Shown: positions 7,410-26,117, numbered from the stretch's first letter. The stretch: DNA of 39,432 nucleotides from a bacterium (GCA_046331705.1 JAXLQJ010000007.1:186001-225432), one strand, 5' to 3'. Program-made: numbers and translations. The notes: generated by a model not told the origin, from the letters alone.

Positions 7410-7438
7410 AGACTAGAACACGTTTCACTTCTCGACAA
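7410..7438 (-). promoter_or_regulatory. Sigma70 promoter of the SDR (probably also the amidohydrolase) with a KstR-like operator in the spacer/-10
   Basis: Minus strand reads TTGTCG-N17-TAGTCT. The operator core TGAAACGTGTTCTA (plus strand 7414-7427 TAGAACACGTTTCA) fits TnnAACnnGTTnnA. Confidence 0.75.
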
Positions 7439-7485
7439 GGCAGCGCACGCGCGCGCCCCGCGCGCCCCACCCCCGGCGCCGCGAC

Positions 7486-8178
7486 TCAGGAATAGCGGTC
7501 GTCGCGCCAGGGGAGCGCGGTCATCGAATAGCCGCGCTGCTCCCAGAATCCCGGGCGATCCCCGGCCATGAGCTCGATCCGCTGGATCCACTTGGCGCCC
7601 TTCCACGCATAGAGCTGCGGCGTGATCATGCGCACGGGACCGCCGTGCTCGCGCCTGAGCGGCTCGCCGTCGGCGCGATGCACCAGCAGCACGTCGGGCT
7701 TGAGCGCTTCCGCCAGCGAGACGTTGGTCGAGTACCCGTCGTAGGCGTGGCACATGGCGTGGGTGGCGGTCTCGAGAGGCCGCGCCAGCGCGATCACGTC
7801 GGCGAAACGCACTCCCACCCAGGGCACGTCCATGCGGGACCAGGTGGTGACGCAGTGGAAATCGCTCACGTCCTCGACCTGCTCGAGCGCCAGGAAGTCG
7901 TTCCACGAGAGCGTGACGGGCGCTTCCACGGCGCCATCGACCCGCAGCGCCCAGCGCTCGATCGGAATGGTTGGTTGCATGCCCAAGTCGAGCACGGGCC
8001 ACTTCTCGACCGCGTGCTGGCCCACCGGCAGCTGCGGCATGCCGTGCCGGTTGAGCGGGCCGCTGCCGAGCGGACTCGGATCGGCGAGCGACGGGGTCGC
8101 CCGCATGTGCTCCTCGAAACGAGCGCGCAGCTTCATGCGCGCCGCCACGATCTTGTCGAGCTTGGGATCGTCGCTCAT
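7486..8178 (-). CDS. Sulfite-oxidase-like molybdopterin-binding oxidoreductase (YuiH/MsrP-like, cytoplasmic)
   Basis: LPVGQ, WPVLDLG, DFHCVTTWS (Mo-ligand Cys), WVGV, YSTNVSL, EHGGPVR, YAWKGAKW, GFWEQRGY. Start ATG8178 follows GAGGAG. Confidence 0.9.
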   Translation of the reverse strand: MSDDPKLDKIVAARMKLRARFEEHMRATPSLADPSPLGSGPLNRHGMPQLPVGQHAVEKWPVLDLGMQPTIPIERWALRVDGAVEAPVTLSWNDFLALEQVEDVSDFHCVTTWSRMDVPWVGVRFADVIALARPLETATHAMCHAYDGYSTNVSLAEALKPDVLLVHRADGEPLRREHGGPVRMITPQLYAWKGAKWIQRIELMAGDRPGFWEQRGYSMTALPWRDDRYS

Positions 8179-8225
8179 CGGCTCCTCGCTCGGCTGACGC
8201 GGGCGGCTGGCTGTGGCCGCCCGAG

Positions 8226-9008
8226 CTATCGTCCTCGGAAGCGCGGCGCGCGTTTCTCCAGGAAGGCGAGGACTCCCTCCTGATAATCCTCGCTGGCGAA
8301 GCACGCGGCCACCAACGCCTCCGCCTCGCCCTCGCTCAGGACGCCGCCCACGTGGCGGCGCACGGCGAGCCGCGCGTAGCGCAGCGCGAGCGGCGCGTTC
8401 TTGGCGATCTCGCCGACCCATTCCTCGGTGCGCGCGAGCAGCTCCTCGCCGGGAACGCAGCGCTGCACCAAGCCGAGTCGAAGGGCCTCGGGACCGTGCA
8501 CGAACCGTCCCGAGAGCAGCAGATCCAGCGCCGTCGCCTCGCCGGCCACCGCCACCAGTCTTTCCACCGCGGCGTGGGGGTACGCGAGCCCGAGCTTGCC
8601 TGCGGGAATGCCGAGAAACGCGGTCTCCGCGGCGATGCGGAGGTCGCACGCGAACGCGATCAGGCAACCCCCGCCCAGGCACGGCCCGCCGATCATCGCG
8701 ATCGACGGCACCGGCAGACGCTCGAGCACCCGGATGGTGTCCACCGCGCCCTGGTCGTAACGCCGGGCCAAGTCCGGATCGGAGCGAAGGTGCCGGAACT
8801 CGTTGATGTCCGCGCCGGCGATGAAGTTGCCGGCCGTGCCGGTGACGACCACCGCGCGCACACCGTCCTGCGCGGCGAGCCATTCGAGCCTGCCGGGGAT
8901 CGCTTCCCAGAGCTCGCGCGTGAGCGCGCCACGGCTCTCGGGGCGATCGAGGACCAGCCAGCCGATCGGCCCAGCCACACGCGTCCGAAGCGAATCGGTC
9001 ACGCTCAT
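8226..9008 (-). CDS. Enoyl-CoA hydratase/isomerase (crotonase) family protein
   Basis: FIAGADINEF, GPCLGGG, ACDLRIA, PAGKLGLAY, SEDYQEGVLAFLEKRAPRF. Start ATG9008. Confidence 0.9.
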   Translation of the reverse strand: MSVTDSLRTRVAGPIGWLVLDRPESRGALTRELWEAIPGRLEWLAAQDGVRAVVVTGTAGNFIAGADINEFRHLRSDPDLARRYDQGAVDTIRVLERLPVPSIAMIGGPCLGGGCLIAFACDLRIAAETAFLGIPAGKLGLAYPHAAVERLVAVAGEATALDLLLSGRFVHGPEALRLGLVQRCVPGEELLARTEEWVGEIAKNAPLALRYARLAVRRHVGGVLSEGEAEALVAACFASEDYQEGVLAFLEKRAPRFRGR

Positions 9009-9184
9009 GGGATCCCTTCCGCGTCGCGATCGAGGAACGAGGTGCTTGGCGCGGCGGCACATTTAGCGCCGGCGATCGTGCGGGGCAATCGCGCGCGCGA
9101 GCGCCGCGGCACGTCTGTGAAACTCGTCGGCACTCTGTCATCCTTCGGCGCCATACGCCGCGTCATCAGCGGGCCGAGGAGCTC

Positions 9185-9691
9185 ATGCCGGACACACCCA
9201 CCATCGCCACCGACCAGTTCAAGGCCCTCATGTCGACCTTCGCCGCGGGCGTGACGGTCGTGACCACCATCGACGACGCCGGCCAGCTGTGGGGTCTCAC
9301 CGCCACGGCGTTCTCGTCGGTATCCCTCGACCCACCGCTCTGCTTGGTGTGCATCGATCGGCGCACGGCGAGCCACGATCCGATCCTCGACGCCACGCGG
9401 TTCGCGGTCAGCATCCTCAGCGATCAGCAGCAAGACCTCTCCAACCGCTTCGCCAGTCGCCTGCCCGACAAGTTCGCGGGCGTCGCCTGGACCGCGGGCC
9501 CCGCCACCGGCAGCCCGGTTCTCGGCGACGCGCTGGCGTGGATGGATTGCAGTGTCGAGCACGCCCACGCGGGCGGCGATCACACGATCGTCGTGGGCCG
9601 CATCCACCACGCGTGGATCGGCGAAGGCAAGCCCTTGGTCTATTGGCGCGGTGCGTACGGCGACGTCACCTCGCGGCCGAAGGCGTGGTGA
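9185..9691 (+). CDS. Flavin reductase (HpaC/HsaB/RutF-like)
   Basis: FAAGVTVVT, TATAFSSVSLDPPLCLVC, GDHTIVVG, PLVYWRGAY; RBS GAGGAG. Confidence 0.93.
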   Translation: MPDTPTIATDQFKALMSTFAAGVTVVTTIDDAGQLWGLTATAFSSVSLDPPLCLVCIDRRTASHDPILDATRFAVSILSDQQQDLSNRFASRLPDKFAGVAWTAGPATGSPVLGDALAWMDCSVEHAHAGGDHTIVVGRIHHAWIGEGKPLVYWRGAYGDVTSRPKAW

Positions 9692-9725
9692 AGCCGTTGC
9701 CGCGCTCGCCGCGCGAGGTGGGTCG

Positions 9726-10490
9726 ATGACGGGTCGGGTATCGGGGAAGGTCGCGCTGATCACGGGTGCGGCGTCGGGGCTGGGCGCAGCAGCGGCGCGA
9801 CGGCTCGCCGCCGAGGGCGCCCGGGTGATGCTCACCGACCTTCAGGACGAGCGCGGCACCGAGGTCGCCGCGGAGATCGGCGCTCACGCCCGCTATCGAC
9901 ACCTCGACGTCGCCTGCGAGGCGGACTGGAGCGCGGCCATCGCGGCGACGATCGACGCGTTCGGCAAGCTCGACGTCCTCGTCAACAACGCCGGCATCGG
10001 CCTGCTCGCGGACGTCGAGGCGACGTCGCTCGAGGACTGGAAGCGGGTCCACGCCGTGAACCTCGACGGCGTCTTCCTCGGCTGCAAGCACGCGCTGCCG
10101 GCGATGCGCGCCAGCGGCGGCGGCTCGATCGTGAACATCTCGTCGATCTCCGGCATCGTCGCCGGCCACAACCTCGCGGCCTACAACTCCAGCAAGGCCG
10201 CGGTCCGGCATCTCACCAAGTCGGTGGCGCTCCACGGCGCCCGCTCTCGGCCGCCGGTGCGCTGCAACTCGATCCATCCCACCTTCGTCGACACGCCCAT
10301 CCTCGACGCCCTGCTCAGCGCCGCACCCGACCCCGCCGCGGCACGGCGCAAGCTCGCCGCCCAGATTCCGCTCGGCGCCATCGGCGAGCCCAACGACGTC
10401 GCCTGGGCGGTCGTCTACCTGGCGTCCGACGAGTCGAAGCTCATGACCGGCGCGGAGCTGGTTCTCGACGGCGGTCTCTCGGCGCAATAG
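9726..10490 (+). CDS. Classical SDR (3-beta/17-beta-hydroxysteroid or cyclic-alcohol dehydrogenase-like)
   Basis: GRVSGKVALITGAASGLG, NNAG, SSISG, YNSSK, RCNSIHP, LASDES, TGAELVLDGG. Start ATG9726 follows GAGGTG. Confidence 0.9.
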   Translation: MTGRVSGKVALITGAASGLGAAAARRLAAEGARVMLTDLQDERGTEVAAEIGAHARYRHLDVACEADWSAAIAATIDAFGKLDVLVNNAGIGLLADVEATSLEDWKRVHAVNLDGVFLGCKHALPAMRASGGGSIVNISSISGIVAGHNLAAYNSSKAAVRHLTKSVALHGARSRPPVRCNSIHPTFVDTPILDALLSAAPDPAAARRKLAAQIPLGAIGEPNDVAWAVVYLASDESKLMTGAELVLDGGLSAQ

Positions 10491-10665
10491 CGCCGCGCGC
10501 GCCCAGCGCCACGCACCCCGCAGTCGTGCACTGCATGGGGCACGCGGTTTGTCCCCCGGCGCCAGCGCCGCGGAAACTGTGGCCCAGCGAGGCCACCGCT
10601 CCCGCCACGGTGGCGCCACGGAACCTATTGCTCAGCCAGCCCCGCTGGTGAGATAAGAGGGGACG

Positions 10666-11481
10666 ATGAAAATCACGATCATTCGGCCGCTCCTCTCGCT
10701 CTTGCTCGTCTGCCCACTGGTCTTCACTGGCGCTGCGCGTGCGTTCGAGGAAGTCCGTGGACCACTCGACTCGGATCCGAAGCTGCCGTCGATCCCCGAC
10801 ATCGGCGACATCCAGCTCTCGCCGGACGAGTGGACGGAGGTCCAGAAGGGCGAGATCGTCGTACAGATCCTGGAGCGCGGTGAGGAAGATCGTCAGGCCC
10901 GCGCGATCGGCTATCTGAAGCACAATCCCAGCCAGCTCTTCGACGTCGCCACGGATTCCACCTTGGCGGCGCGGCTGGTGCCCGAGGTCAAGAAGGTCGA
11001 GGTCCTCGAGCGCTCTTCGTCGCACAAGCGCTTCCACGGCGAGGCCGACTTCTCGTTCATGCTGCCGCGCTTCCAGTACACGATGCTCTCCGCCTACAAC
11101 GACAGCCACACCGGTCAGGCGTGGACGCAAGTGAAAGGCGATCTCGACAAGAACGAAGGGAGCCATTCGTTCTTCTGGGACGCGCAGCGTCAGCAGACCC
11201 TGGCGGTCTTCACCTACGACATGGCGCTCAAGGGCATCTTGAGCATCGTGCCCGAGTACGTGGTGATCCGGATCGCGAGCCGCACCCTGCCCGACTTCCT
11301 GCGCAATCTCGACAACGTCATCGACTCGGTCTACGCCGAGGACCCAGCCCGGGGAACGCGCGTGGCCTCGGAGTGGACCGGGCTCAAGCCCCGTCTCGAA
11401 GGCGGCCAGCTCGCGTCCCGCGCCTGGCAGGGGCCGATCGCCGTGGCCACCCGCGAGGCGCACCCTGCCGGCTCTCCGTAA
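10666..11481 (+). CDS. Secreted SRPBCC/START (polyketide cyclase-like) lipid-binding domain protein
   Basis: Signal peptide ending AARA|F; RBS GAGGGG. START-like pattern PSQLFDVATD...VPEVKKVEVLE, WTQVKGDLDKNEGS and C-terminal helix PEYVVIRIASRTLPDFL. Confidence 0.65.
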   Translation: MKITIIRPLLSLLLVCPLVFTGAARAFEEVRGPLDSDPKLPSIPDIGDIQLSPDEWTEVQKGEIVVQILERGEEDRQARAIGYLKHNPSQLFDVATDSTLAARLVPEVKKVEVLERSSSHKRFHGEADFSFMLPRFQYTMLSAYNDSHTGQAWTQVKGDLDKNEGSHSFFWDAQRQQTLAVFTYDMALKGILSIVPEYVVIRIASRTLPDFLRNLDNVIDSVYAEDPARGTRVASEWTGLKPRLEGGQLASRAWQGPIAVATREAHPAGSP

Positions 11482-11501
11482 GTCCCGTCCCTCGGACGTA
11501 C

Positions 11502-11536
11502 GACGCCCCCGCTGGATCGAATCCAGCGGGGGCGTC
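11502..11536. terminator. Perfect 16-bp hairpin, probable bidirectional terminator between convergent genes
   Basis: GACGCCCCCGCTGGAT-CGA-ATCCAGCGGGGGCGTC, lying between stops at 11481 (+) and 11595 (-). U-tracts are weak. Confidence 0.7.
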
Positions 11537-11594
11537 TTGCTCCCCGGGCGAGCAGCGGGTCGCGCCAGCCGTCACCGCCCGCCCGCGGCTCTGG

Positions 11595-12827
<1,233 letters not shown>

Positions 12828-12961
12828 GGGTTCTCCCTTCTCTCTCTCGCCGGGTCACCGCATTCTCGAAGTCGGTGCCCGGGCCTATTGGGGTGGATGC
12901 GCCGAACCATAGCAGACCGCGGAAGTGTTCGTGGAATCAGGCAATTTCGCGCATGACACGG

Positions 12962-12990
12962 TTGTACGAGCGACGGCCGAGCGTTACGCT
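12962..12990 (+). promoter_or_regulatory. Putative sigma70 promoter of sucA-sucB-lpdA
   Basis: TTGTAC-N17-TACGCT, 53 bp upstream of the sucA ATG. A divergent extended -10 (TG-C-TATGGT, minus strand 12906-12911) could serve the thiolase. Confidence 0.55.
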
Positions 12991-13043
12991 GAAATCGATT
13001 TTCCGGCACGATCCGACAACGCATTCCGAAGGACGCGTCTCTC

Positions 13044-15869
13044 ATGGCCCAAGCGGAGAGCTGGCCGCATCCCTCGAACCTCGCCTTCGTCGAGGAGCTG
13101 TACGTTCGCTGGCTCCGCGATCCCCGCTCGGTGGACGCCGATTGGGGAAAGTACTTCGCGACGCTGCCCACGGAGCGCGCGTTCGCCGCCGAGCCGCGGC
13201 TCGGCGCCACCGCCCCGAACGGCTCGATCTTCCGCTCCTACGGTTCCAACGGTCACGGCTCGGCGCACCTGGCGCCGAGCGCCGCTCCGGATCAGTCGAT
13301 CCAGATCCTGCAGGACCGCGTCGACCAGCTGATCCGCGCCTACCGCTTGCGCGGCCACCTGATCGCCGCCGTGGACCCCCTCGGACTGCCACGCCCCTTC
13401 CAGCGCGAGCTCGATCCGGCGTTCTACAAGCTCACCGACGCCGACCTGGATCGCGTGTTCTCGAGCGAGACCATCGCGCTCGAGGGCGAGCTCACGCTGC
13501 GACGCATCCTGCGCCGCCTCCAGTCCACGTACTGTCGGTCGATCGGCGTGCAGTTCATGCACATCACCGATTACGGCGTGAAGGCGTGGCTCCAGGCGCG
13601 CATGGAGCACTCCGAGAACCGGATCGTCCTCGGCCGGCACGAGCAGCTGCGCATCCTGCGCCGCCTCACCGACGCGGTCATCTTCGAGGAGTTCATCCAG
13701 AAGCGCTTCCAGGGTGCCAAGTCGTTCTCGCTGGAGGGATCCGAGAGCCTGATCCCGCTGCTCGATCTGGCCATCGAGCACGCCGGCGACCTCGGCGTCG
13801 AGCAGATCGTGATCGGCATGAGCCACCGCGGACGGCTCAACGTGCTCTCGAACATCATGGGAAAGAGCGCCGCCGAGATCTTCGCCGAGTTCGAGGATAC
13901 GAACCCCGAGCTCTCGCTGGGCCGCGGCGACGTCAAGTACCACCTCGGCTATTCGAGCGATTGGAAGACCACCGCAGGCAGGAGCGTGCACCTCTCGCTC
14001 TGCTTCAACCCGAGCCATCTCGAGTTCGTGGGCCCGGTCGTGCAAGGCCGCGTGCGAGCCAAGCTCGATCGCATGGGCGGCGACGATCCCGCGAGCCGCG
14101 CGCTCGGCATCGTCATCCACGGCGATGCCGCGTTCGCCGGCGAGGGTGTCGCTCAAGAGATGCTCAACATGAGCCGCCTCGAGCCCTACTCGATCGGCGG
14201 CACGATCCACGTGATCGTCAACAACCAGATCGGGTTCACCACCCCGCCCCACCAGGCCCGTTCCAGCACGTATCCCACCGGCGTCGCGCGGATGCTCCAT
14301 TCGCCGATCTTCCACGTGAACGGCGAGGATCCCGAGGCCGTGGCGCAGGTGGTGCGCCTGGCGCTCGACTTCCGCCAGCGCTTCCGGCGCGACGTGTTCA
14401 TCGACATGTACGGCTACCGTCGGCGTGGCCACAACGAGGGCGACGAGCCGTCGTTCACTCAGCCGCTGCTCTACAAGGCGATCGAGGCGCGCAAGCCCGT
14501 CCGCGAGGGCTACCTCGACCATCTTCTGCGCCTCGAGGGCGTCACCCGCGAGGAGGCCGACGCCTTGGCGGCGCGCCGCCGCGAGCACCTGGAGCAAGAG
14601 CTCAAGCGGGCCCAGAGCGCCAAGGTGTTCCCCACCGATGCGCCGATGGGCGGGGTGTGGCGCGGCTACTGCGGCGGCAACGAGCTCGAGGTCGAGGAGA
14701 TCGACACGGGCGTGCCGCGCGAGCGGCTGGCGCGCCTGCTCGAGATCCAGACGCGCCTGCCGGGCGGTTTCCACCCCCATCCCAAGATCGCGAAGATCCT
14801 CGAGACGCGGCGCGAGATGGCGGCGGGAAAGCGCCCCCTCGACTGGTCCGCGGGCGAGAACCTCGCGCTGGCGACGCTCGCGATCGAGGGCGTGCGCATT
14901 CGCCTGACGGGCCAGGACGCCGAGCGCGGCACCTTCAGCCATCGGCACGCCGTGCTCCACGACTTCGAGGACGGGCACACCTACATGCCGCTCGCGCACC
15001 TGGCGCCGGAGCAGGCGCCGGTCGACATCGACAACAGCCCGCTCGCCGAGATCGCGCCGCTCGCCTTCGAGTACGGCTACAGCATGGATCGGCCCGAAGC
15101 GCTGGTGATGTGGGAGGCGCAGTTCGGCGACTTCGTCAACGTCGCGCAGGTCATCATCGACCAGTTCATCGTGAGCGCCGAGCAGAAGTGGCAGCGGCTG
15201 AGCGGGCTGGTGATGCTGCTGCCACACGGGCTGGAAGGCGCGGGTCCGGAGCACTCGAGCGCGCGGATCGAACGGTTTCTCTCGCTCGCCGCCGAGGACA
15301 ACATCCAGGTCGCGCAACCGACGACCCCGGCGCAGATCTTCCATCTGCTGCGGCGACAAGTGTTGCGACCGTGGCGCAAGCCGCTGGTCGTGATGACGCC
15401 GAAGAGCTTGCTCCGGCTCCCCGCGGCGAGCTCGTCGCTCGACGACCTCACGACGGGCACCTACCAGCGCGTCATCGCCGACGCGCGCCCCGCGGCGCAG
15501 CAGAAGAAGACCGAGCGCGTGCTGCTCTGCACCGGCAAGCTCTACTACGAGCTCGACAAGAAGCGAACCGAGCTCGAACGCGACGACGTCGCGATCCTGC
15601 GCCTCGAGCAGCTCGCCCCGTTTCCCGGCGAGACCCTGCGCCGCAGCCTCGCCGAGTATCGCGCCGAGACTCCGGTCTTCTGGGTCCAGGAAGAGCCCGA
15701 GAACATGGGCGCCTGGGCCCATCTGCGCGTGCGATTCCTGGAGCGGATGTTCGATCGCCATCCGTTCGCGGGCATCTCGCGACCCGCGTCGGCGAGCCCG
15801 GCCACGGGCTCGCACGCGAGCCACAAGCTCGAGCAAGAGGCACTGCTCGCCGAAGCCTTCGGGCTGTGA
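13044..15869 (+). CDS. sucA: 2-oxoglutarate dehydrogenase E1
   Basis: [80 protein letters not shown]. Confidence 0.98.
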
Positions 15870-15966
15870 GGGCCGCGGCCATCGCCGAGCGCGCGCCGCC
15901 GCCCGACCCGCCCGACGCAACCCCGACCGCGCACGTTCGCCCCCATCCGAGAGGAACGAAGCTGCC

Positions 15967-17232
15967 ATGGCCATCGACATCGTGGTGCCATCCGTCGGCG
16001 AATCGATCACCGAGGTCGAGCTCGGCGATTGGCTCAAGAACGAGGGTGATTGGGTCGAGAAGGACGCGCCGATCGTCGTGATCGAGAGCGAGAAGGCCAC
16101 CGTCGAGGTCCCCGCGCCGGTGTCGGGCACGATCGCGAAGATCGCGAAGCGCAAGGGCGAGAAGGCCCAAGTCGGCGAGACCATCGGCCAGATGGAGGAG
16201 TCGGCCAAGCCGACGAGCGCGTCACAGCCGGCCGCGAAGGCGGCGCCGGCTGCCAGCGCGGCGGTTCCCAGCGCCCCGGCGGCGCCCGCCGGCGCGCAGG
16301 CAGGCGACGGCGTACGCGTGATGCCCGCGGCGCAACGCGTCCTCGCGCAACACGGGCTCGCGGCGAGCGACGTCCCGGCGAGCGGGCCGGGCGGCCGCCT
16401 GCTCAAGGAAGACGTCGAGCGACACGTGGCGGCTGCACAGACGGCGCCCGCCGCCCCCGCGTCTCAGCCTCCGGCGCCGCCGCCCGCTCCCCAGGCGATC
16501 GCCTTCGCGGCGGCCTCCGGCGAGCCCGGCGGCGTCGAGGACGACGTCGTCCCCATGAGCCCGCTGCGCCGCAAGATCGCCGAGCGGCTCGTGATGTCGC
16601 AGCAAACCGCCGCGCTGCTCACGACCTTCAACGAGATCGACATGTCGGCGGTGATCGCGCTGCGCAAGCAGTATCAGGAAGCCTTCGCCGCCCGCTACGG
16701 CATCAAGGTCGGCTTCATGTCGTTCTTCGTGAAGGCGGCCGTGGATGCGCTCCACCGGGTGCCCGAGGTCAACGCGGAGATCCGCGGCACCGACATCGTC
16801 TACCACCGCTACTACGACGTCGGCGTGGCGGTGGGCGGCGGCCGCGGTCTGGTGGTGCCGGTGATCCGGCACGCCGATCGGCTCTCGTTCGCCGAGGTCG
16901 AGCGCACGATCGAAGACTTCGGCAAGCGTGCGCAAGCGGGCAAGCTCAAACCGGAGGAGCTCTCGGGCGGCACGTTCACCATCTCGAACGGCGGGATCTA
17001 CGGCTCGCTGCTGTCGACGCCGATCGTGAACCCGCCGCAGGTGGGCATCTTGGGGCTGCACAAGATCGAGGACCGGCCGGTGGCCGTCGGCGGCCAGGTC
17101 GTGATCCGGCCGATGATGTACGTGGCGCTCACCTACGATCACCGCATCATCGACGGCCGCGAGGCGGTGACCTTCCTGAAGCGCATCAAGGAAGTCATCG
17201 AGGACCCGGCACGGATGCTCCTCGAGATCTGA
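15967..17232 (+). CDS. sucB: Dihydrolipoamide succinyltransferase E2
   Basis: Lipoyl domain ([19 protein letters not shown]), E3-binding [35 protein letters not shown]. Confidence 0.97.
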
Positions 17233-17290
17233 GCCGGGCGTCGCGCGCCCGGGAACTCGCATTTCTCCCACACGAAGGGCAGCTCATCTC

Positions 17291-18691
17291 ATGGAACGCT
17301 CGCGACACGATCTGGTGGTGATCGGCGCCGGCCCGGGCGGCTATCAGTCCGCCATTCGCGCGGCACAGCTCGGCCTCGACGTGGGCGTGGTCGAGAAGGA
17401 CGCCACGCTCGGCGGCACCTGCCTCAACGTGGGGTGCATCCCCAGCAAGGCGCTCCTCGAATCGAGCGAGCTCTACGCGGAGGCCGCGCACGGTGCCTGG
17501 ACCACTCACGGCATCCGCACGGGCGCCGTCGAGCTCGACCTCGCCGCGCTGCTCAAGCGCAAGGATCAGGTCGTGAAGGCGCTCACCACGGGCGTCGCCG
17601 GCCTCTTCAAGAAGCACAAGATCGCGCGCCACACGGGACGCGGCCGGATCACCGCGCCCGGGCGCGTGTCGGTCGCCGGCGCGGACGGCCAGGACATCGC
17701 CGAGCTCGAGGCCAAGCACATCCTGATCGCCACGGGCAGCAAGCCAGCGAGCTTGCCAGGCGTGGTGCTCGACGGCGATCGCGTCGGTACCAGCACCGAG
17801 GCCATCGCCTATCGCGAGGTGCCGAAGCGATTGGTGGTCATCGGCGCGGGCTACATCGGCCTGGAGCTCGGCTCGGTGTGGCGCCGGCTCGGCTCGCACG
17901 TCGTGGTGGTCGAGTTCCTGAACCGGATCCTGCCCGGAATGGACGACGAGATGGCGGCCGAGGCGCAGAAGGTCTTCGCCAAGCAGGGACTCGAGTTCCA
18001 CCTCGGCAAGCGGGTCACGGCGGCCCGTGCCGATGGCGACGGGGCCATCGTCGAGATCGAGGGAAGCGAGCCGATCGCTTGCGACCGAGTGCTCGTCGCG
18101 GTGGGCCGCCTGCCCTTCACCGAAGGCCTCGGCCTCGAATCCGTGGGGATCGCGCTCGATCCGAAGGGCCGCATTCCGGTGGACGCGCACTGGCAGACCA
18201 GCGCGCCGGGCATCTACGCGATCGGCGACGTCATCGCCGGGCCGATGCTCGCCCACAAAGCCGAGGAAGAAGGCGTCGCCGTCGCCGAGTGGATCGGCAC
18301 GGGCTGGGCGCACGTCAACTACGAGACGATCCCCGGCGTTTGCTACACGAACCCCGAGTTCGCCACCGTCGGCAAGACCGAGGAAGCGCTGAAGGCGGAA
18401 GGGATTCCCTATCGCAAGGGCTCGTTTCCGTTCCGCGCCAACGCGCGCGCGCGCACCCTCAATCAACTCGAAGGACGGATCAAGATCCTCGCGCACCGAG
18501 ACACGGATCGCGTGCTCGGCGTGCACATCTTCGGTCCGCGCGCCGGCGAGCTCATCGCGGAAGCGACGCTAGCCATGGAGCTGGGGGCCTCGAGCGAGGA
18601 CATCGCACGCACCTGTCACGCTCACCCCACCCTGCCCGAGGTGCTGCGCGAGGCGGCCCTCGCGGTGGACGGACGCCCGCTCAACATCTGA
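17291..18691 (+). CDS. lpdA: Dihydrolipoamide dehydrogenase E3
   Basis: GAGPGGY, GGTCLNVGCIPSK, GAGYIGLE, GPMLAHKAEEEG, HAHPTLPE. Confidence 0.97.
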   Translation: MERSRHDLVVIGAGPGGYQSAIRAAQLGLDVGVVEKDATLGGTCLNVGCIPSKALLESSELYAEAAHGAWTTHGIRTGAVELDLAALLKRKDQVVKALTTGVAGLFKKHKIARHTGRGRITAPGRVSVAGADGQDIAELEAKHILIATGSKPASLPGVVLDGDRVGTSTEAIAYREVPKRLVVIGAGYIGLELGSVWRRLGSHVVVVEFLNRILPGMDDEMAAEAQKVFAKQGLEFHLGKRVTAARADGDGAIVEIEGSEPIACDRVLVAVGRLPFTEGLGLESVGIALDPKGRIPVDAHWQTSAPGIYAIGDVIAGPMLAHKAEEEGVAVAEWIGTGWAHVNYETIPGVCYTNPEFATVGKTEEALKAEGIPYRKGSFPFRANARARTLNQLEGRIKILAHRDTDRVLGVHIFGPRAGELIAEATLAMELGASSEDIARTCHAHPTLPEVLREAALAVDGRPLNI

Positions 18692-18752: not shown

Positions 18753-21014
18753 TCAGCTCGCGCCGGCGGCGCTCCGCCCGGGAAGATCCGCGCTGACCTT
18801 GCCCACCTGGACGATCGGCAGCTCGGGAGCAGGCTCGCCAGTGATCGCCTCGACCAGCTCGGGATCCAGCCTGCGGTAGTTCCAGGCCGCCTCCACGCGA
18901 AAGCGGCAGCCAGGCCTGGATTCGTCGCATGCGAGCGCCGCGCCGTCGAGGCGCACCTCGTGCGCACCCACGACCGGAATCCGTCCCAGATCCACGACCT
19001 TGTCCACCGCCCAGAGGCGGTGGTCGCGGATCATCTCGCCGTCGGCGTCGAAGAGCCGATCTCCCAGGGCCGGCGCTCCCTCCGGGCCGCGACCACCGAT
19101 GTCGAGCACGATGCCACCGCGCTCGTCGGTCGCTCGCACCGAAAGCCAGACCTGGAAGAGATCCGTTGGGCCAGTCGGAAAGACGTGGCCGATCTGCCCC
19201 GAGTTGCGGGTGAGGACGACGAGCGTGTCGCCCTCGCGCTCCACCGTCATGACGAGCAGAGCGGCTGACCCGGCGTCCGGCGCAGCGGCGCTCACGGGTG
19301 CGGCCTCGCCGTAGGCGTACCCCCCGGTCGGCGGAACGGACCCCGGCGCCGCGAGACTGGCCACCACCTCGCTGACGCCGGCGGCTCCCCTCGCCACGCC
19401 GGCGACGTACGTGCTCGCAGCCAGGAAGCGGTGATCGTGGATGGGGACGTCGTACGTCTGGTGGTAGTAGCTCATGTGGCAGGCGGTGCAGGTCCTTCCC
19501 TCGGCCGCCGCGGGTGAGCCCTGCCACGACGCGTATTGGTCCTGAAGCACGTGCGCGACCCGCCCGTGGGTCGGCGGGCCGAGGGTCTGCACGTGGCAGG
19601 GCGTGCACGTGGTCGCCTCGTGAGTCGCGAAGCGATAGCGCTCCCGGTGTCTCCCGAGGTGGCTCGAGACGAGCATGTGCTCGACCAGCGGCCGGGCGCC
19701 GGGCAGTCGGCCCAGCTGGCTCGCGGCGCCGGGGCGGTCGATGAGCAGCGAGAACGCGTCCGCCCCCAGCGGTACGACCTCGAACGCGCCGTCGCCGCGG
19801 CCGCCAGGCATCGCGCGGTGACAGGAGACGCAATGCACCCCGGCGCGATAGCCCTCGCTCGCGACCACGGCCTCGAAGCTCGCGTCGGCCGGGTCGCGCG
19901 CGTGCGGCGCATGGCAACGCAGGCAGAAGCGCAGCTCCTCGGGCCCGCGCTCCGCGCGCAACCTGCGGAGCAGCGAGGTGAAGAACGGGTTGTTCGCCGC
20001 ATGCGCGTGCGAGGACTGTACCCAGCCGGGGACCACGTCGCTGTGACACGACTCGCAGGTGCCCGGCACGATGGCGGTGAAGCCGACGTCCATCGGCACG
20101 AGCGCGGTGGTGTCGCTCGCGAAGCTCGCCAAGCGCGCGCTCCCAGCCACCGCGAGCAGCGTGGTCGCCAGCACGGCGGCGACGAAGGCCGGCAGCGCTT
20201 GCCAGCGGATCGGCGTCGCCCAGGGGTACCTCCGCCGCGGTGGATTCCACACCCGCGCGCTACGCGCCCGCGACGAACGGATGTGTGCCACCACGAGCGC
20301 CAGCGCGATCCACGACGTCACGACGTGCACGAACCACGGGATCGGGTAGCGATCGAACACGTGAACGTAGAGCAACAGGCCCGAGCTCGCGCCGGCGCCG
20401 CCGAGCGCCGCGACGAAGCAGACGAGCATCGCCAGCCCGCCCAGGCCCCCCGGGGTCTTGGTCACGCTGCCGCTGCTCTTGGCCACGCTCCAGAGCAGAA
20501 TGCCGCCGCTGATCACGCCCGTGCCCAGCACCATCAGCGTGTGGTGCTTGGCGTCGAGAAGCAGCCGGGCGAAGACGGCCAGCACCGTCAGCAAGGCGAC
20601 GGCGAGGCGAGCGGCCCGCCCCAAGCCGAGGATCCGCACCACCCCCAGCAGCAGGCCCGCGACGGCGGCGATGAACCCAAAGTCCTTCACGATGTGGGCG
20701 TCCCATTCATCGCGCGAGCGCCAGGCGCCCACCACACCGATCACCAACGCCACGAGCGGCGCCCGTGACGCGCTACGCAGCGGGCTCCCGACACCGCCGA
20801 CGGTCTGCGCCAGATGGAGCGCGACATAGGCGAGCCCGAGGGCGATCACGACGACGCCCACCGCCATGTGCGCGATCTGCAGGAACTGGAGCGCGAGCGC
20901 CGGGCGCGGCTGAGTCCACGTCACCGCGCCGCTGACGGCGAGAAAGCACAGCAGGCCCGCCAACACGCCGCGCAGGCGACTCTCGGCGGTCAACTCAACC
21001 CCGCCCAGGCACAC
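18753..21014 (-). CDS. Polytopic membrane protein fused to a pentaheme c-type cytochrome (c554/c552-like) domain
   Basis: About 8 hydrophobic segments in the N-terminal ~300 aa, then five CxxCH motifs (CESCH, CLRCH, CVSCH, CTPCH, CTACH), SSHAHA, HDHRF and GHVFPTG. Start is uncertain (GTG21014 or TTG20993). Confidence 0.85.
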   Translation of the reverse strand: MCLGGVELTAESRLRGVLAGLLCFLAVSGAVTWTQPRPALALQFLQIAHMAVGVVVIALGLAYVALHLAQTVGGVGSPLRSASRAPLVALVIGVVGAWRSRDEWDAHIVKDFGFIAAVAGLLLGVVRILGLGRAARLAVALLTVLAVFARLLLDAKHHTLMVLGTGVISGGILLWSVAKSSGSVTKTPGGLGGLAMLVCFVAALGGAGASSGLLLYVHVFDRYPIPWFVHVVTSWIALALVVAHIRSSRARSARVWNPPRRRYPWATPIRWQALPAFVAAVLATTLLAVAGSARLASFASDTTALVPMDVGFTAIVPGTCESCHSDVVPGWVQSSHAHAANNPFFTSLLRRLRAERGPEELRFCLRCHAPHARDPADASFEAVVASEGYRAGVHCVSCHRAMPGGRGDGAFEVVPLGADAFSLLIDRPGAASQLGRLPGARPLVEHMLVSSHLGRHRERYRFATHEATTCTPCHVQTLGPPTHGRVAHVLQDQYASWQGSPAAAEGRTCTACHMSYYHQTYDVPIHDHRFLAASTYVAGVARGAAGVSEVVASLAAPGSVPPTGGYAYGEAAPVSAAAPDAGSAALLVMTVEREGDTLVVLTRNSGQIGHVFPTGPTDLFQVWLSVRATDERGGIVLDIGGRGPEGAPALGDRLFDADGEMIRDHRLWAVDKVVDLGRIPVVGAHEVRLDGAALACDESRPGCRFRVEAAWNYRRLDPELVEAITGEPAPELPIVQVGKVSADLPGRSAAGAS

Positions 21015-21462
21015 GGCTCGATCGGCGCTCGTGCGACCACCACCGGCAGCGCGCCGACGCCAGATTCATCGCGCGGAAACGGTAATCGAAACTCGCTCTC
21101 CCCGGTACTCGATCGGGAGCTCGCCGGAACGATTCGACACGCGCCGACGGCGCCCCGAGCCGCCGCCCGCGCGAGCGGCGCTGGCGCATGACCGCGTTCC
21201 CCCCTGCGCACGATCGCGCCCGCGTCGCCCGTCGAGCCGACTCCGCCGCGGGGTTGGCGGGAAGGGTCACTCTCGCAAGGCGCGATGGCTGGCCACCGAG
21301 ATCGCCGGCTGCTCGTGGGGCTGACCCAGCCCGCCCGCAGGCCACGCCCCCCGGGGCGCGAGTGAGCGATTCGGTCTTCACGCGCTTCGCTTCGCGATCC
21401 GGTCCGCTTCGTCCATCCACACGTCGCGTGCCGCCGCTATATTCGCGCCGGAGGCACGGCAC

Positions 21463-22998
21463 GTGAAAGACGACGCTCCGGATCACCCTCTCCCGCCATC
21501 CGCAGCCACCCCGCCTCGGCCCGGCACCGCCGGCAGACCGATCCGCGATGCTGCCGACTATCTGGCGAGCCTGCGCGGGCGAAACCTGCGGGTGTTCGCG
21601 CTCGGCGAGCGCATCCCCGAGCCGGTCGATCATCCGCTGATCCGGCCGTCGATCAACGCGATGGCGGCGACCTACGATCTGGCGCTCACCGACCCCGAGC
21701 TCGCCACGGCCCGCTCGTCCCTGGTGAACGAGCGCGTCAACCGCTTTCTGCACGTCACCGAGTCGGTCGACGACGTGGTGGCGCAGAACAAGATGCAGCG
21801 CCGCCTCGGCCAGCTCACGGGTACGTGCTTCCAGCGCTGCGTGGGCATGGACGCGATCAACGCGCTCTTCTCGATCACGTACGACTGCGATCGAGCCCAC
21901 GGAACTCCCTACCATGCGCGGCTGCGATCGTTTCTGGCGATGGCCCAATCCCTCAACCTGGTGATCGGCGGGGCGATGACGGACCCGAAGGGCGACCGAA
22001 GCAAGGGGCCCTCGGAGCAAGACGATCCCGACGTCTTCGTTCACGTCGTCGAGCGCCGCGCCGACGGGCTCGTGCTGCGCGGCGCCAAGGCGCATCAGAC
22101 CGGCTGCATCAACTCCCACTGGATCGTGGTCATGCCGACGATGCGTCTCGACCCGCGCGACGCGGCCTTCGCGGTGGTGGCGGCGATCCCGGTGGAGGCC
22201 GCCGGGCTCACGTTCGTGTACGGCCGCCAGTCGTGCGACACGCGCAGCCTCGAGGGCGGCGCGATCGACGTCGGCAACGCCAGCTATTCCGGCCAAGAGG
22301 CGATGATCGTCCTCGAGGACGTCTTCGTCCCGTGGGAGCGCGTGTTCCTGGATGGCGAGACCGAGATGGCCGCGCCGCTGGTGGAGCGTTTCACCGCGTA
22401 CCACCGGCGCAGCTACGTGTGCAAGACCGGCGTGGGCGACGTGCTGATCGGGGCGGCCGCATCCATCGCCGACATGAACGGCGTGGCGGGCGCATCGCAC
22501 GTCCGCGACAAGCTGGTGGAGATGGCCCACCTGAACGAGACCATCTATGGCGCCGGCGTCGCTTCCTCGTACGAATCGAAGCCCACCGCCGCCGGGAACT
22601 ACCAGAACGACGACCTGCTCGCCAACGTGTGCAAGCACAACGTCACGCGCTTCCCGTACGAGATGGGGCGGCTCGCGCAGGATCTCGCCGGTGGGCTGCT
22701 CGTGACGCTTCCCTCGGAGAAGGATCTCGCGTCCCCGGAAACCGGCCCCCTGCTCAGCCGCCTGTTGCGCGGCCGCAGCGGCGTGCCGACCGAGCACCGC
22801 GTGCGCATGCTGCGGCTGATCGAGAACATGACCTTGGGACGAAACGCCGTCGGTTACCTCACCGAGTCGCTTCACGGCGCCGGCTCGCCGCAGGCTCAGC
22901 GCATTCAGATCGCGCGCCAGATGGATCTTGCCCACAAGAAGCGCCTGGCGCGTCGGCTGGCCGGGATCGACGACGACGAGCCCGGGCGTGACGGCTGA
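21463..22998 (+). CDS. abfD: 4-hydroxybutyryl-CoA dehydratase / vinylacetyl-CoA delta-isomerase
   Basis: [4Fe-4S] ligand motifs GTCFQRCVGMDA and YHRRSYVCK; MTDPKGDR, GAKAHQTG, ESLHGAGSPQAQR. RBS GGAGG; -10-like TATATT at 21438-21443. Confidence 0.9.
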   Translation: MKDDAPDHPLPPSAATPPRPGTAGRPIRDAADYLASLRGRNLRVFALGERIPEPVDHPLIRPSINAMAATYDLALTDPELATARSSLVNERVNRFLHVTESVDDVVAQNKMQRRLGQLTGTCFQRCVGMDAINALFSITYDCDRAHGTPYHARLRSFLAMAQSLNLVIGGAMTDPKGDRSKGPSEQDDPDVFVHVVERRADGLVLRGAKAHQTGCINSHWIVVMPTMRLDPRDAAFAVVAAIPVEAAGLTFVYGRQSCDTRSLEGGAIDVGNASYSGQEAMIVLEDVFVPWERVFLDGETEMAAPLVERFTAYHRRSYVCKTGVGDVLIGAAASIADMNGVAGASHVRDKLVEMAHLNETIYGAGVASSYESKPTAAGNYQNDDLLANVCKHNVTRFPYEMGRLAQDLAGGLLVTLPSEKDLASPETGPLLSRLLRGRSGVPTEHRVRMLRLIENMTLGRNAVGYLTESLHGAGSPQAQRIQIARQMDLAHKKRLARRLAGIDDDEPGRDG

Positions 22999-23572
22999 GC
23001 CGCCGCCACGCCACCGCTGGCTCGAGCAGGTGGACGTGCTCGATCGCGCGGCGATGCGGCTGCTACCGCGCATTCGCCGGCGGTCGCTCACGCCGCCGCT
23101 TCTCGCCATCACGTACTCGGGCTCGGCGCCCAGCTGGTTCGGAGCCGCACTGATCCTGATGGCGCTCGTGCACTACGAGGTCGGCCCGGTCACCACGCTT
23201 CGCGCCTGGCTCGCGTGCATGACGGGATCGTTCGGATCGCTGCTCGTCGGCGAGGCGTTGAAGCGGCTCTTTCGTCGCACGCGCCCCTACCACGCCCTCG
23301 CCGATCACGAGGCTCTCGGGTGGCCGCCGCCCAACGCTTCCATGCCGTCGACGCACGCGTCGACGTCGGTGGCACTCGCCGTCGGCCTGGCGCTGGCTGG
23401 CGACCCGCACGCGGGCGCGGTCGCCGCGTGGGCGGCGCTGGTGGTGTTCTCGCGCTACTACACGGGCGTCCATTACCCGAGCGATCTGGCCGTCGGCGCC
23501 GCGCTCGGCGGCGCCTTCGGCCTTCTGGACTGGACCTGGGTGGTGCGCGCGGTGCTCGGCGCACCGGGCTGA
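22988..23572 (+). CDS. PAP2-family membrane phosphatase
   Basis: C1 KRLFRRTRP, C2 PSTH, C3 SRYYTGVHYPSD and hydrophobic helices. GTG22988 overlaps the abfD end. Confidence 0.88.
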   Translation: MTAEPPPRHRWLEQVDVLDRAAMRLLPRIRRRSLTPPLLAITYSGSAPSWFGAALILMALVHYEVGPVTTLRAWLACMTGSFGSLLVGEALKRLFRRTRPYHALADHEALGWPPPNASMPSTHASTSVALAVGLALAGDPHAGAVAAWAALVVFSRYYTGVHYPSDLAVGAALGGAFGLLDWTWVVRAVLGAPG

Positions 23573-23614
23573 ATCAGCTCCGGACGGCCGCGCAGCTCGC
23601 GCGGGAGCGCTCGC

Positions 23615-24421
23615 TCACTTGCCTTCCTTGGGGTCCTTCGCTGCGGGCGGCGGCGGGGGCGGTGCCGCTTCCTGGATTCCGACCAGCTCGACCTCGAAGA
23701 CGAGCGTGGATTGCGGCGGAATCGTGGGCGGCCGGCCGTTGGGGCCGTAGGCCAGCTCGGGCGGGATCACGAGCTGCCACTTGTCGCCGACCTTCATCAT
23801 CTGCAGCGCTTCCGTCCAGCCCTTGATCACGCCCGTGACCGGGAACTTCGCCGGCTCGTTGCGCTTGTACGAGCTGTCGAACTCGGTGCCGTTGATCAAC
23901 GTGCCCTTGTAGTGGGCGCTCACGGTATCGGTGGGCTTGGGCGACTTACCGTCCCCCGACTTGAGCACCTTGTACTGAAGGCCGCTCGCGGTGACCTTCA
24001 CGCCGTCCTTCTTCTTGTTCTCGTCCAGGAACTTCTTGCCCTCGGCGGCGTTCTTCTCGCCTTCGGCCTTCATGGCGGCCTGGCGCTTTTCGATCATCTG
24101 CTTCTGGAAATCCATCATGACCTGGCGATTCTCGTCGGCGTTCATGACCGAGTCCTTGCCCGAGAGCACCTCGGTCAGGCCGCGCACGAGAAAGTCGATG
24201 TCGATGTCGGCACCCGCGGGCTTGACGCTCTCGCCGACGTTCCGCCCCAGGGCGTAGCCGAGCCGCTGCTTCGGAGTCCACGACGCCGTGGCCGGGTTCG
24301 GAGCCGGCGCCGGCGCTGCCGGCGGAGCCGATGCCGCCGGAGTGGCGTGCGGATCGTCCTCGGCCCGGACCAGCCCGGCCCACGCCATCATCGCCAGCAA
24401 GGCGATTCCCATGCGCTTCAT
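23615..24421 (-). CDS. fkpA: Periplasmic FKBP-type peptidyl-prolyl isomerase (FkpA/Mip type)
   Basis: Signal peptide VRA|E, dimerisation domain GYALG, TASGLQY, HYKGTLINGTEFDSS, VIKGWTEAL, IPPELAYG, LVFEVEL. Extended -10 TG-C-TATGAT at 24506-24511 (minus). Confidence 0.9.
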   Translation of the reverse strand: MKRMGIALLAMMAWAGLVRAEDDPHATPAASAPPAAPAPAPNPATASWTPKQRLGYALGRNVGESVKPAGADIDIDFLVRGLTEVLSGKDSVMNADENRQVMMDFQKQMIEKRQAAMKAEGEKNAAEGKKFLDENKKKDGVKVTASGLQYKVLKSGDGKSPKPTDTVSAHYKGTLINGTEFDSSYKRNEPAKFPVTGVIKGWTEALQMMKVGDKWQLVIPPELAYGPNGRPPTIPPQSTLVFEVELVGIQEAAPPPPPPAAKDPKEGK

Positions 24422-24542
24422 TCGTATCTCCTGAGACGCCGCCCAGCGAGCGACGGCAGAAACGAGAACGGCGGACCAGGCCAGCCCCGAGCCGCCAAGC
24501 CGCGAATCATAGCAGCGGGAAGAGCCGGACTCGCGCGCGTGC

Positions 24543-25976
24543 TCACGAAGGCAGATGAAGCGCCTTCGGCTCGAGGTATTCCTCGAGCCCCCACACGCCG
24601 AGCTCGCGGCCTCGGCCGGACTGCTTCATGCCACCGAACGGTGCCGCCGGATTGAACGGCGCGCCGTTCACGTGGACCTGACCAGTGCGAATGCGACGCG
24701 CCACCCGCTCGGCGCGGGCCCGGTCGTTCGACCACACCGCGCCGCCGAGCCCGTAGACGGTCTCGTTGGCGATGCGCACCGCGTCCTCCTCGTCCCGATA
24801 CGGCACGATGCAGAGCACCGGTCCGAAGATCTCCTCTTGCGCCACGGTCATGTCGTTGCGTACGTCCGCGAGCACCGTGGGACGCACGAAGTAGCCGCGC
24901 GCGAGGCCGTCCGGCGGCTCGACACCGCCCGTCACCAGGCGCGCGCCCTCGGCGAGGCCTCGCTGGATGTACCCACGCACCCGATCGCGCTGCGTCGCGC
25001 TCACCAGCGGACCGAGCTTCGCGCCGCCCCGCACGGGATCGCCCACGGTCACGTGCTCCGCTTCGTCCTTGGCGATGCGGATCGCGTCGTCCTGGCGATG
25101 CTCGGGGACCAGCATGCGGCTCCACGCCGTGCACATCTGGCCCGAGTTGCTGTAGCACTGCTGCACTCCCGCGCGCACCGCCTTCTCGAGATCGGCGTCG
25201 TCGAGGATCACGTTGGCGGACTTGCCGCCGAGCTCGAGCGCCACGCGCTTCACCGAGGCCGCCGCCAGCTCGGCGACGCGCTTGCCGGCGCGCGTCGAGC
25301 CCGTGAACGAGACCATGTCCACTCCCGGGTGGCGCGCCATCGCCTCGCCCACCACCGGCCCCGACCCGCTCAGCAAGTTGAAGACGCCGGCCGGCAGCGC
25401 GGCACGCTCGACGATCTCGGCCAGCGCGAAGCACGCGAGCGGCACCACCTCGCTCGGCTTGAGCACCACCGTGCAACCCGCGGCCAACGCCGGCGCGACC
25501 TTCGCGATCACCTGGTGCAGCGGGTAGTTCCAGGGCGTGATCGCGGCCACGACTCCCACGGGCTCCTTCACGATCAGCGAATGACCCACGGTCTCCTCGA
25601 ACGCGAACCGTTCGAGCAGGTCGGCGTAGAACCCGAGTGTCAGGATCGGCAAGCCCACGTGGATCTTGGACGCTGCCGAGAGCGGTGCGCCCAACTCTCG
25701 CGCGATGAGCAGCGCCAGCTCCTCCTGGCGCTCGACCAGCCCGCGCCCGATCGCCCGGAGCAGCGCCGCCCGCTCGTGCGGCGCGCGCGCCGACCACGCG
25801 GGGAACGCCGCTCGTGCCGCGGCCACCGCGTCGTCGACGTCCGCGGGCGTACCGGCGGGAACCGAGCCGAGGACCTCCTCGGTGCTCGGATTCACCACGG
25901 CGAACGAGCCGCTCTCGCGTGGCGCCACCCAGGTTCCACCGATGAAGAAACGGTCTCGCACGATCCGCTCGCTCAT
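24543..25976 (-). CDS. NAD(P)-dependent aldehyde dehydrogenase
   Basis: [45 protein letters not shown]. Start ATG25976 follows GGAGG. Confidence 0.95.
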
Positions 25977-26085
25977 CTCCGCCTCCTCCGTCCCTGGCCC
26001 GCGGCGAGCATAGCGCGCCATCCCACGCTCCCCGCTCGGGGGCCGCGAGCGCCCTTCCCGCCCCTTGGCAGCCCGGGCTCCACGC

Positions 26086-26104
26086 GACTAGAACACGTTT
26101 CACT
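26086..26104. promoter_or_regulatory. KstR-like operator (second copy) in the divergent ALDH / DUF35-ltp intergenic region
   Basis: GACTAGAACACGTTTCACT is identical to 7411-7429. It abuts the RBS (GGAGAG 26105-26110); TTGGCA at 26065-26070 lies 18 bp before TAGAAC. Confidence 0.75.
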
Positions 26105-26117
26105 GGAGAGCAGCGAC

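Follow-up and report, generated by a model that had tools for sequence, protein, structure and literature searches.

KstR (Rv3574 / MSMEG_6042; PDB entries 3MNL, 5CW8, 5FMP and 5UA1/2) is the TetR repressor that controls cholesterol catabolism in Mycobacterium and Rhodococcus. According to Kendall et al. 2007 (PMC1995591), the KstR site is a 14-bp palindrome, TAGAAC(N2)GTTCTA, with the core TnnAACnnGTTnnA, and the site in the kstR promoter overlaps the −10 element. Here, a 39,432-nucleotide stretch of DNA from a non-actinobacterial diderm bacterium (the window; G000:C7:186001-225432) is analysed, in which one 19-mer, GACTAGAACACGTTTCACT, occurs twice in front of genes of steroid- and lipid-catabolic families. 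The analysis, which is computational throughout, makes it very probable that both 19-mers serve as operators for a TetR repressor of the KstR type, encoded elsewhere in the same genome, at G000:C2:305294-305971.

Two further groups of TetR repressors are close enough to be compared. KstR2 (Rv3557c) acts on the second half of the steroid pathway, the C/D-ring (HIP) catabolism. Regulators of the PsrA and FadR type in Proteobacteria and Thermus control beta-oxidation genes and are released by acyl-CoA or fatty acids, and their operator half-sites are of the AAAC/GTTT type.

In the literature searched, KstR is described as an actinobacterial regulator, and no relevant paper in it connects this regulator with Myxococc* or Binat*. 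In Bergstrand 2016 only KstR2 comes up, for Actinobacteria. KstR goes unmentioned in the metagenome survey of Holert 2018 (PMC5790920), according to which 9,10-seco degraders occur only in Actinobacteria and Proteobacteria, and a 2019 review (PMC6678751) treats KstR for mycobacteria only and names other regulators for Proteobacteria. The original prediction, made from the window sequence, had called KstR-like regulation not established in a non-actinobacterial steroid degrader with an outer membrane. This stands within the literature searched, but the JGI automatic annotation already labels a few homologues of the repressor described below as 'cholesterol catabolism regulator'. What the present analysis adds is the gene of the repressor, with its operon and predicted fold, and the presence of the operator at promoters of orthologues; the evidence supports a new, distant member of the KstR kind in a non-actinobacterial diderm.

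The operator copies and their match to the mycobacterial site

The 19-mer was found exactly where it had been described, with both copies on the + strand:

7411..7429, no strand assigned: operator copy 1, with the palindromic 14-bp core TAGAACACGTTTCA at 7414-7427; position weight matrix (PWM) score 32.2
26086..26104, no strand assigned: operator copy 2, with the core at 26089-26102; PWM score 27.2

There is no third copy in the window at up to 3 mismatches, and these two are the only exact copies in the 8.17 Mb of the genome. None of 100 dinucleotide-preserving shuffles contained any match, and the core TnnAACnnGTTnnA has 2 matches in the window against 0.05 expected. Both copies are intergenic and, with 8 of 19 positions G or C, AT-rich against a window of 66.5-72.7% G+C, as had been claimed. 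Copy 1 is bounded by the stop of a molybdopterin-oxidoreductase gene (7486, −) and by the GTG start of a short-chain dehydrogenase/reductase (SDR) gene (7379, −), copy 2 by the start of an aldehyde dehydrogenase gene (26021, −) and by a gene for a DUF35/ChsH2-type protein. Sequence identity between the two copies ends sharply at both edges of the 19-mer, so the copies are not part of a longer repeat; consistently, a repeat analysis of the window found no longer repeat family covering either of them. The check for a dispersed repeat thus points to an operator family and not to a mobile repeat.

The window core TAGAACACGTTTCA is the reverse complement of TGAAACGTGTTCTA, which in Kendall et al. 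(PMC1995591) is the core of two M. tuberculosis KstR sites positive in electrophoretic mobility shift assays (EMSA), Rv3545c/Rv3546 and Rv1894c/Rv1895. The earlier statement that Rv1628c belongs to the KstR regulon agrees with Table 3 of the same paper, which gives a predicted motif at Rv1628c/Rv1629, for which EMSA was not done.

A genome-wide family of probable operators

The host genome (G000; 70% G+C, 118 contigs) contains 54 matches to TnnAACnnGTTnnA, of which 28 fit the pattern T[AG][AG]AAC-NN-GTT[CT][CT]A. The pattern TRRAACRYGTTYYA has 27 matches, compared with a single match for the reversed-pattern control. A weight matrix built from the genome sites gives a 22-bp palindromic consensus, GAAGTAGAACATGTTCTACTTC, in which TAGAAC and TGAAAC half-sites occur about equally often and combine freely within one operator. 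Scanning with this matrix yields 26 sites scoring 22.7-40.2 and nothing else above 17.2; as the matrix derives from these very sites, the separation is in part circular.

The 26 strong sites occupy 23 intergenic regions spread over 17 contigs. Just 2 of the sites fall deep inside crude gene calls, compared with 756 of 1000 random positions, so that 24 of 26 sites but 244 of 1000 random positions lie outside or not deep inside a called gene. A start codon within 250 nt was dropped as a measure of promoter placement, since 912 of 1000 random positions pass it as well.

The KstR-like repressor

The window contains no TetR gene, in agreement with the earlier statement that no kstR lies in it; on this contig, the closest TetR_N match lies 21 kb upstream, at C7:165022-165156. 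Among the 40 TetR_N matches of the genome, not one adjoins an operator, so the repressor was sought through its C-terminal domain family instead. When the genome was searched for PF17925 (TetR_C_20), C2:305609-305935 was the sole match (51 bits; one of 36 candidates scored). It belongs to the following gene, and the suggested search for a KstR/TetR orthologue thereby led to a locus on another contig:

G000:C2:305294-305971: KstR-like TetR repressor, 225 aa, with PF17925 and PF00440

The open reading frame (ORF) scores 50.9 bits for PF00440 and 50.3 bits for PF17925 (cut-off 26.5). In a phmmer search against PDB, the KstR entries of M. tuberculosis rank first (E 5e-21, with residues 28-216 aligned to 12-193), followed by a TetR of Rhodococcus RHA1 (2.6e-16), with all other TetRs at 3.8e-8 or weaker. 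The best NCBIfam family is NF033703, the KstR equivalog model, at 124.5 bits, in an alignment that spans model positions 7-184 of 185; the second-best family reaches 54 bits, and no other protein of the genome gives a full-length match to NF033703. The score is far below the cut-off of 280 bits, so the protein is filed as a distant member of the KstR family and not as an equivalog, a placement drawn from its sequence and its predicted fold. An annotated Tsukamurella kstR, included as a control, passes at 306 bits, and orthologues from Binatia, Myxococcota and Gammaproteobacteria metagenome-assembled genomes (MAGs) score 119-126 bits. In the opposite direction, tblastn with the Tsukamurella kstR ranks C2:305387-305944 first in the genome (E 2.5e-21, with 31.7% identity across 186 residues; the match after it is at 3e-4). 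A forward search against plasmid records returns the Tsukamurella 'kstR' and a Nocardia locus as best matches, the former being a reciprocal best match.

Structure prediction agrees with this placement. An AlphaFold2 model built from 31 sequences has a mean predicted local distance difference test score of 88 and a predicted template modelling score of 0.79, and Foldseek ranks 1-23 are all chains of M. tuberculosis KstR or Rhodococcus 3BJB. Among the matches listed, the KstR chains superpose with a target template modelling (TM) score of 0.85-0.93 and a root-mean-square deviation (rmsd) of 1.5-2.3 Å, the closest being the operator-bound 5FMP. The next fold family is Thermus thermophilus FadR, with a TM score of 0.69 and an rmsd of 4.8 Å. 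In databases, 1458 proteins match the KstR-like repressor at E<=1e-10; among the best 120 of these 1458, PF00440 is present in 120 of 120 and PF17925 in all but one.

Linkage of repressor and operator

The KstR-like gene is the fifth of six co-directional genes, which encode two acyl-CoA dehydrogenases, a CoA ligase, an ERG2/Sigma1R-like protein, the KstR-like protein and a KshA-like protein, with gaps of 23, 30, 74, 3 and −4 nt. An operator at C2:300519 precedes the first gene of this cluster, 4.8 kb upstream of the KstR-like gene, and a spacing of 4.6-4.8 kb recurs in related genomes. As the fifth gene of a putative operator-headed operon, it may be autoregulated. Its immediate upstream neighbour in this catabolic-looking operon, separated by 3 nt, is the following:

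G000:C2:304733-305290 (L047:4333-4890): ERG2/Sigma1R-family protein (sterol C-8 isomerase / sigma-1 receptor family), Pfam 7.8e-68

The link between repressor and operator is more direct in other lineages. Seventeen orthologous loci were collected (L022-L038, 44-93% identity), of which one is cut at a contig end and 16 are assessable; those from outside the lineage of the window come from MAGs labelled Myxococcota, Binatia, Gammaproteobacteria and 'Spirochaetales'. At 10 of the 16 (L028-L033 and L035-L038), a palindrome ends no more than about 105 bp upstream of the orthologue, the one at L036 having a TGCAAC half-site. Two more, from the lineage of the window, have the operator 4.6-4.7 kb upstream at the head of the operon. 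No upstream operator was found at two weak, non-orthologous TetR matches (L039 and L040). The taxon labels of the MAGs behind L026, L028 and L034 look doubtful. At L026:6001-6651, in the MAG labelled 'uncultured Spirochaetales', there is an internal stop within the tblastn span of the KstR-like match, for which a frameshift, a broken gene and an assembly error are all conceivable causes.

At the level of genomes, all six genomes of the lineage have the repressor together with 20-27 pattern matches each (control 0-3). Five repressor-bearing genomes of other lineages have 4, 9, 3, 4 and 8 matches against 0, 0, 0, 0 and 1 in the control, whereas among 55 unrelated genomes none has the repressor at E<=1e-20 and the pattern matches total 25 against 47 in the control.

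Genes of the proposed regulon and their likely substrate

The 37 ORFs flanking the 26 strong sites were scanned against Pfam; about 25 belong to steroid- or lipid-catabolic enzyme families and 6 to no family. Three acyl-CoA dehydrogenases, three SDRs and three AMP-dependent ligases are accompanied by two Rieske proteins with the KshA C-terminal domain (KshA_C), one KshB-type FAD/NAD/2Fe-2S reductase, two P450s, two luciferase-like monooxygenases and two aldehyde dehydrogenases. A GMC oxidoreductase, a 3beta-hydroxysteroid dehydrogenase/epimerase-type protein, an enoyl-CoA hydratase, a nitronate-monooxygenase-type protein, an amidohydrolase_2, an Ltp-type thiolase, a DUF35 protein and a CoxG/SRPBCC protein occur once each. 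Less obvious members, also single, are a CCG/Fer4 protein, a pilin-like protein and MurJ, plus a weak ABHD18 match. The suggested scan of the genome thus placed the sites beside steroid- and lipid-catabolic gene families, and at the family level the set is the one expected for sterol side-chain and ring A/B attack.

The Gram-negative addition to the regulon is a TonB-dependent receptor, whose gene diverges from an acyl-CoA ligase gene across an operator (C82:18891) that is among the best-scoring:

G000:C82, L020:301-2436, −: TonB-dependent receptor gene

It is a candidate for an outer-membrane sterol uptake step under KstR-type control.

With the same repressor and the same operators, the regulon might serve not growth on external steroids but the cell's own sterol-like or isoprenoid lipids or general fatty-acid catabolism, the effector being a non-steroid acyl-CoA. 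The ERG2/Sigma1R-family gene in the operon of the repressor and the many generic beta-oxidation families would fit this, and Kendall et al. 2007 (PMC1995591) call the mycobacterial KstR regulon one of lipid degradation. Set against these are three KshA_C-type Rieske genes, the KshB-type reductase, the two P450s, the GMC oxidoreductase and DUF35-Ltp pairs, all at operators or in the repressor operon and together typical of attack on the sterol side chain and rings A/B, and a TonB-dependent receptor whose location beside an operator suggests that the substrate is taken up from outside. We regard a non-steroid regulon as unlikely.

Points against the assignment and other origins of the palindromes

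Several observations weigh against assigning the two 19-mers to a KstR-type steroid regulon. The repressor is only about 28-32% identical to actinobacterial KstR, and its shortfall against the NF033703 cut-off is large. In this genome no operator stands directly before the KstR-like gene, so the case for autoregulation passes through a putative 5-kb operon, and at four of the 16 assessable loci (L025, L026, L027 and L034) no upstream operator was found. The six genomes of the lineage are close kin, and the co-occurrence of repressor and operators in them therefore counts as one observation. A scan for consensus sigma-70 promoters returned none at threshold in the region of either copy. Pfam-level family names are no proof that the substrates are steroids. 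Finally, the half-site variant GAAAC-N2-GTTTC resembles what we take to be the PsrA-type operator.

The last point belongs to a further explanation, in which the palindromes are bound by another regulator, either a different TetR such as a PsrA- or FadR-like protein or a non-TetR, and the KstR-like protein has its targets elsewhere. The absence of an operator next to the KstR-like gene and the 40 TetR_N matches of the genome could be read in the same way. They are outweighed by the finding that every one of the 39 remaining TetR_N loci is more than 10 kb away from any strong site, and that the best match to the PsrA model in the genome (57.5 bits) covers the helix-turn-helix only, none being full-length. 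Moreover, the operator recurs at the promoters of KstR-like orthologues elsewhere, and its core is the one bound by M. tuberculosis KstR in EMSA (PMC1995591). Such a regulator is very improbable.

A reading of the two copies as chance recurrences, or as leftovers of a mobile or dispersed repeat that regulate nothing, could draw on the many recurrences of the sequence in the genome. It is already contradicted by the conservation of the sites at orthologous positions in relatives and by their non-coding placement, as well as by the shuffles, the confinement of identity to the 19-mer and the excess over the control pattern, and can be given practically no weight.

Predicted promoters at the two copies and the proposed mechanism

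The two copies are surrounded by the following features, of which the promoter hexamers are predicted ones:

5499..6311, −: Amidohydrolase_2 gene (Pfam PF04909, 2e-34), with a 166-nt gap to the SDR gene
6477..7379, −: SDR gene, 300 aa, the first gene downstream of copy 1 (Pfam adh_short, 5e-42)
7410..7415, −: −10-like hexamer TAGTCT, 17-nt spacer, 2-nt overlap with the operator; TA(G/C)TCT conserved
7433..7438, −: −35-like hexamer TTGTCG of the putative SDR promoter; TTGTC kept in 5 of 5 genomes
24543..26021, −: aldehyde dehydrogenase gene, divergent from the DUF35 gene (Pfam Aldedh, 1.5e-168)
26065..26070, +: −35-like hexamer TTGGCA; TTGGCA or TTGGAA in 4 of 4 genomes
26105..26110, +: ribosome-binding site GGAGAG, directly 3' of copy 2 and 7 nt before the ATG; GGAG conserved
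26118..26558, +: DUF35/ChsH2-type protein with OB fold and zinc ribbon, 146 aa (Pfam OB_ChsH2_C, 2.5e-12; zf-ChsH2, 2.5e-7)
26593..27786, +: Ltp-type (non-Claisen) thiolase or 'lipid-transfer protein', 397 aa, partner of the DUF35 protein (Pfam Thiolase_C_1)

The SDR passes the NCBIfam subfamily model PRK07791 (460.9 bits, cut-off 373), which we take to represent Rv3548c, and the Ltp passes the equivalog model PRK06059 (698 bits, cut-off 424), presumably that of Rv1627c. The Amidohydrolase_2 gene is possibly the second gene of the SDR transcription unit, to judge from its orientation.

In an alignment of the copy 1 intergenic region from five genomes of two genera, the core is invariant and the flanks have diverged. 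On the − strand, TTGTC(G/C) and TA(G/C)TCT lie 17 nt apart on either side of the core, the −35-like hexamer reading GGACAA or CGACAA on the + strand in the five genomes. The operator would thus fill the spacer and enter the −10. TAGTCT equals TATAAT at 3 of 6 positions, which accounts for the blank sigma-70 scan at copy 1. The original prediction had placed copy 1 in a promoter TTGTCG-N17-TAGTCT; these hexamers are present and conserved but fail the consensus scan, and since the scan is blank at both copies, the case for the promoter hexamers is one of conservation.

At copy 2, the string GACTAGAACACGTT(T/C)CA(C/T)TGGAG is conserved in every one of the four genomes with this region. A −10 at TAGAAC would fall within the operator, 18 nt from TTGGCA. 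The claim that copy 2 abuts the ribosome-binding site of the DUF35-ltp pair and is divergent from the aldehyde dehydrogenase gene proved accurate; the ATG of the DUF35/ChsH2-type gene is at 26118, not 26119. The aldehyde dehydrogenase gene is a possible second target of copy 2, and its control is uncertain because its upstream region aligns only with that of the relative G006. The start codon of the SDR gene is 31 nt from the 19-mer of copy 1; with any choice of hexamers, each operator is no more than about 30 nt away from a start codon, a repressor position by sequence.

Under the assignment to the KstR-like protein, a repressor dimer would bind the palindrome TAGAAC-N2-GTTTCA. At copy 1 the dimer would sit over the spacer and the first positions of the −10 in the predicted SDR promoter, and at copy 2 over the −10 and the transcription-start region of the DUF35-Ltp operon, 15 nt before the start codon. 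Because the sites lie within predicted promoter regions, binding would block RNA polymerase. The roughly 26 operators in 23 intergenic regions would place sterol and lipid catabolic genes under one repressor, namely KshA/KshB-like components, P450s, acyl-CoA dehydrogenases, CoA ligases, SDRs, hydratases, Ltp thiolases and the TonB-dependent receptor. The repressor may be released by a sterol-derived acyl-CoA thioester, by analogy with M. tuberculosis; whether the effector is a sterol acyl-CoA is, in our estimate, about evenly balanced.

Comparison with actinobacterial KstR

The system described here shares with KstR the operator, the TetR_N and TetR_C_20 architecture and, in the AlphaFold model, the fold. 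The regulons are of similar size, with 26 sites here and 16 in M. tuberculosis and 31 in M. smegmatis, as counted in PMC1995591. They are also similar in content, comprising KshA/KshB-like proteins, P450s, acyl-CoA dehydrogenases, CoA ligases, hydratases and Ltp, with a DUF35-ltp pair like that of Rv1628c, and the operators appear to overlap core promoter elements in both. In contrast to KstR, the protein here belongs to a lipopolysaccharide-bearing diderm from a deep lineage of six genomes, and its sequence divergence leaves it below the equivalog cut-off. Its gene lies inside a catabolic operon and is not divergently transcribed with an operator of its own. The regulon includes a TonB-dependent receptor, and the extended consensus has AAG/CTT flanks. 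The PsrA and FadR-type regulators differ from it in that no full-length match to the PsrA model exists in this genome and T. thermophilus FadR is only the next-best fold.

Host lineage and distribution of the repressor

The host genome encodes four Omp85/BamA-type proteins, LpxC and LptD, which marks it as a lipopolysaccharide-bearing diderm and answers the question of an actinobacterial host. The gene content of the window includes separate sucA, sucB and lpd genes, a Mip-type FKBP and a multihaem cytochrome. The phylum-level group of the host comprises six genomes of two genera, and every other genome compared shares only the domain with it; this is a very small lineage that branches deeply. 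The presence of the same operators at orthologous promoters in five related MAGs makes a chimeric bin unlikely. The predicted KstR-like regulon in an outer-membrane-bearing non-actinobacterium is supported: a KstR-like TetR gene is present, the motif accompanies steroid and lipid genes, identity does not extend into a longer repeat, and the contig appears neither actinobacterial nor chimeric.

The closest repressors outside the lineage come from MAGs labelled Myxococcales, Myxococcota, Binatia and Gammaproteobacteria. In a tree of 21 rows built by a quick method, from which L026 was dropped for its internal stop and L024 left out as a fragment, the KstR-like rows stand apart from three paralogues (Shimodaira-Hasegawa-like approximate likelihood-ratio test, SH-aLRT, 96), and the protein of the window genome groups with L022 and L023 (98). 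Two actinobacterial rows sit on a long branch beside a Gammaproteobacteria MAG with support 90, a placement that is not trustworthy. The tree argues against recent transfer from Actinobacteria, and no direction can be inferred from it.

A wider reading, held tentatively and with a little less than even confidence, is that a KstR-type regulon sensing sterol acyl-CoA, coupled with TonB-dependent uptake across the outer membrane, is shared by several diderm lineages, namely Myxococcota, Binatia, some Gammaproteobacteria and the six-genome lineage. If so, aerobic KshA-type sterol degradation under mycobacterial-style control would reach far past Actinobacteria and Proteobacteria, and KstR of Actinobacteria, which is important for tuberculosis, would be one branch of a much wider regulator family. 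Should the system of the window genome itself work as proposed, the operator sequence would have been kept across phyla while the repressor diverged to about 30% identity, and regulator and pathway would travel together. Uncultured diderm lineages would likely be sterol degraders whose outer-membrane uptake is under the same switch. A concrete repressor-operator pair is now available for testing in vitro.

Other features of the window

A pattern search found no KstR-type operator at the genes for a flavin reductase (9185-9691), an HpaB-type two-component flavin monooxygenase (21463-22998), sucA-sucB-lpd (13044-18691) and a 753-aa multihaem cytochrome (18753-21014), all of which lie between the two copies, nor in a cluster at 28497-39423 (−) that resembles the mycobacterial C/D-ring gene set of the KstR2 regulon. 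The KstR2 motif has no exact match in the window and three matches with 1 mismatch, all in coding sequence; the two 19-mers were also considered as KstR2-type sites and rejected as not of that type. The C/D-ring-like cluster consists of a thiolase, two SDRs, an enoyl-CoA hydratase, a 352-aa ORF of no family, four acyl-CoA dehydrogenases and a two-subunit CoA transferase (34837-35703 and 34142-34915). It also contains, at 37390-38307, a paralogue of the SDR gene downstream of copy 1, the two being 76% identical in DNA over 248 nt (7142-7389 and 38058-38305), and the window thiolases at 11595-12827 and 38308-39423 are likewise paralogous.

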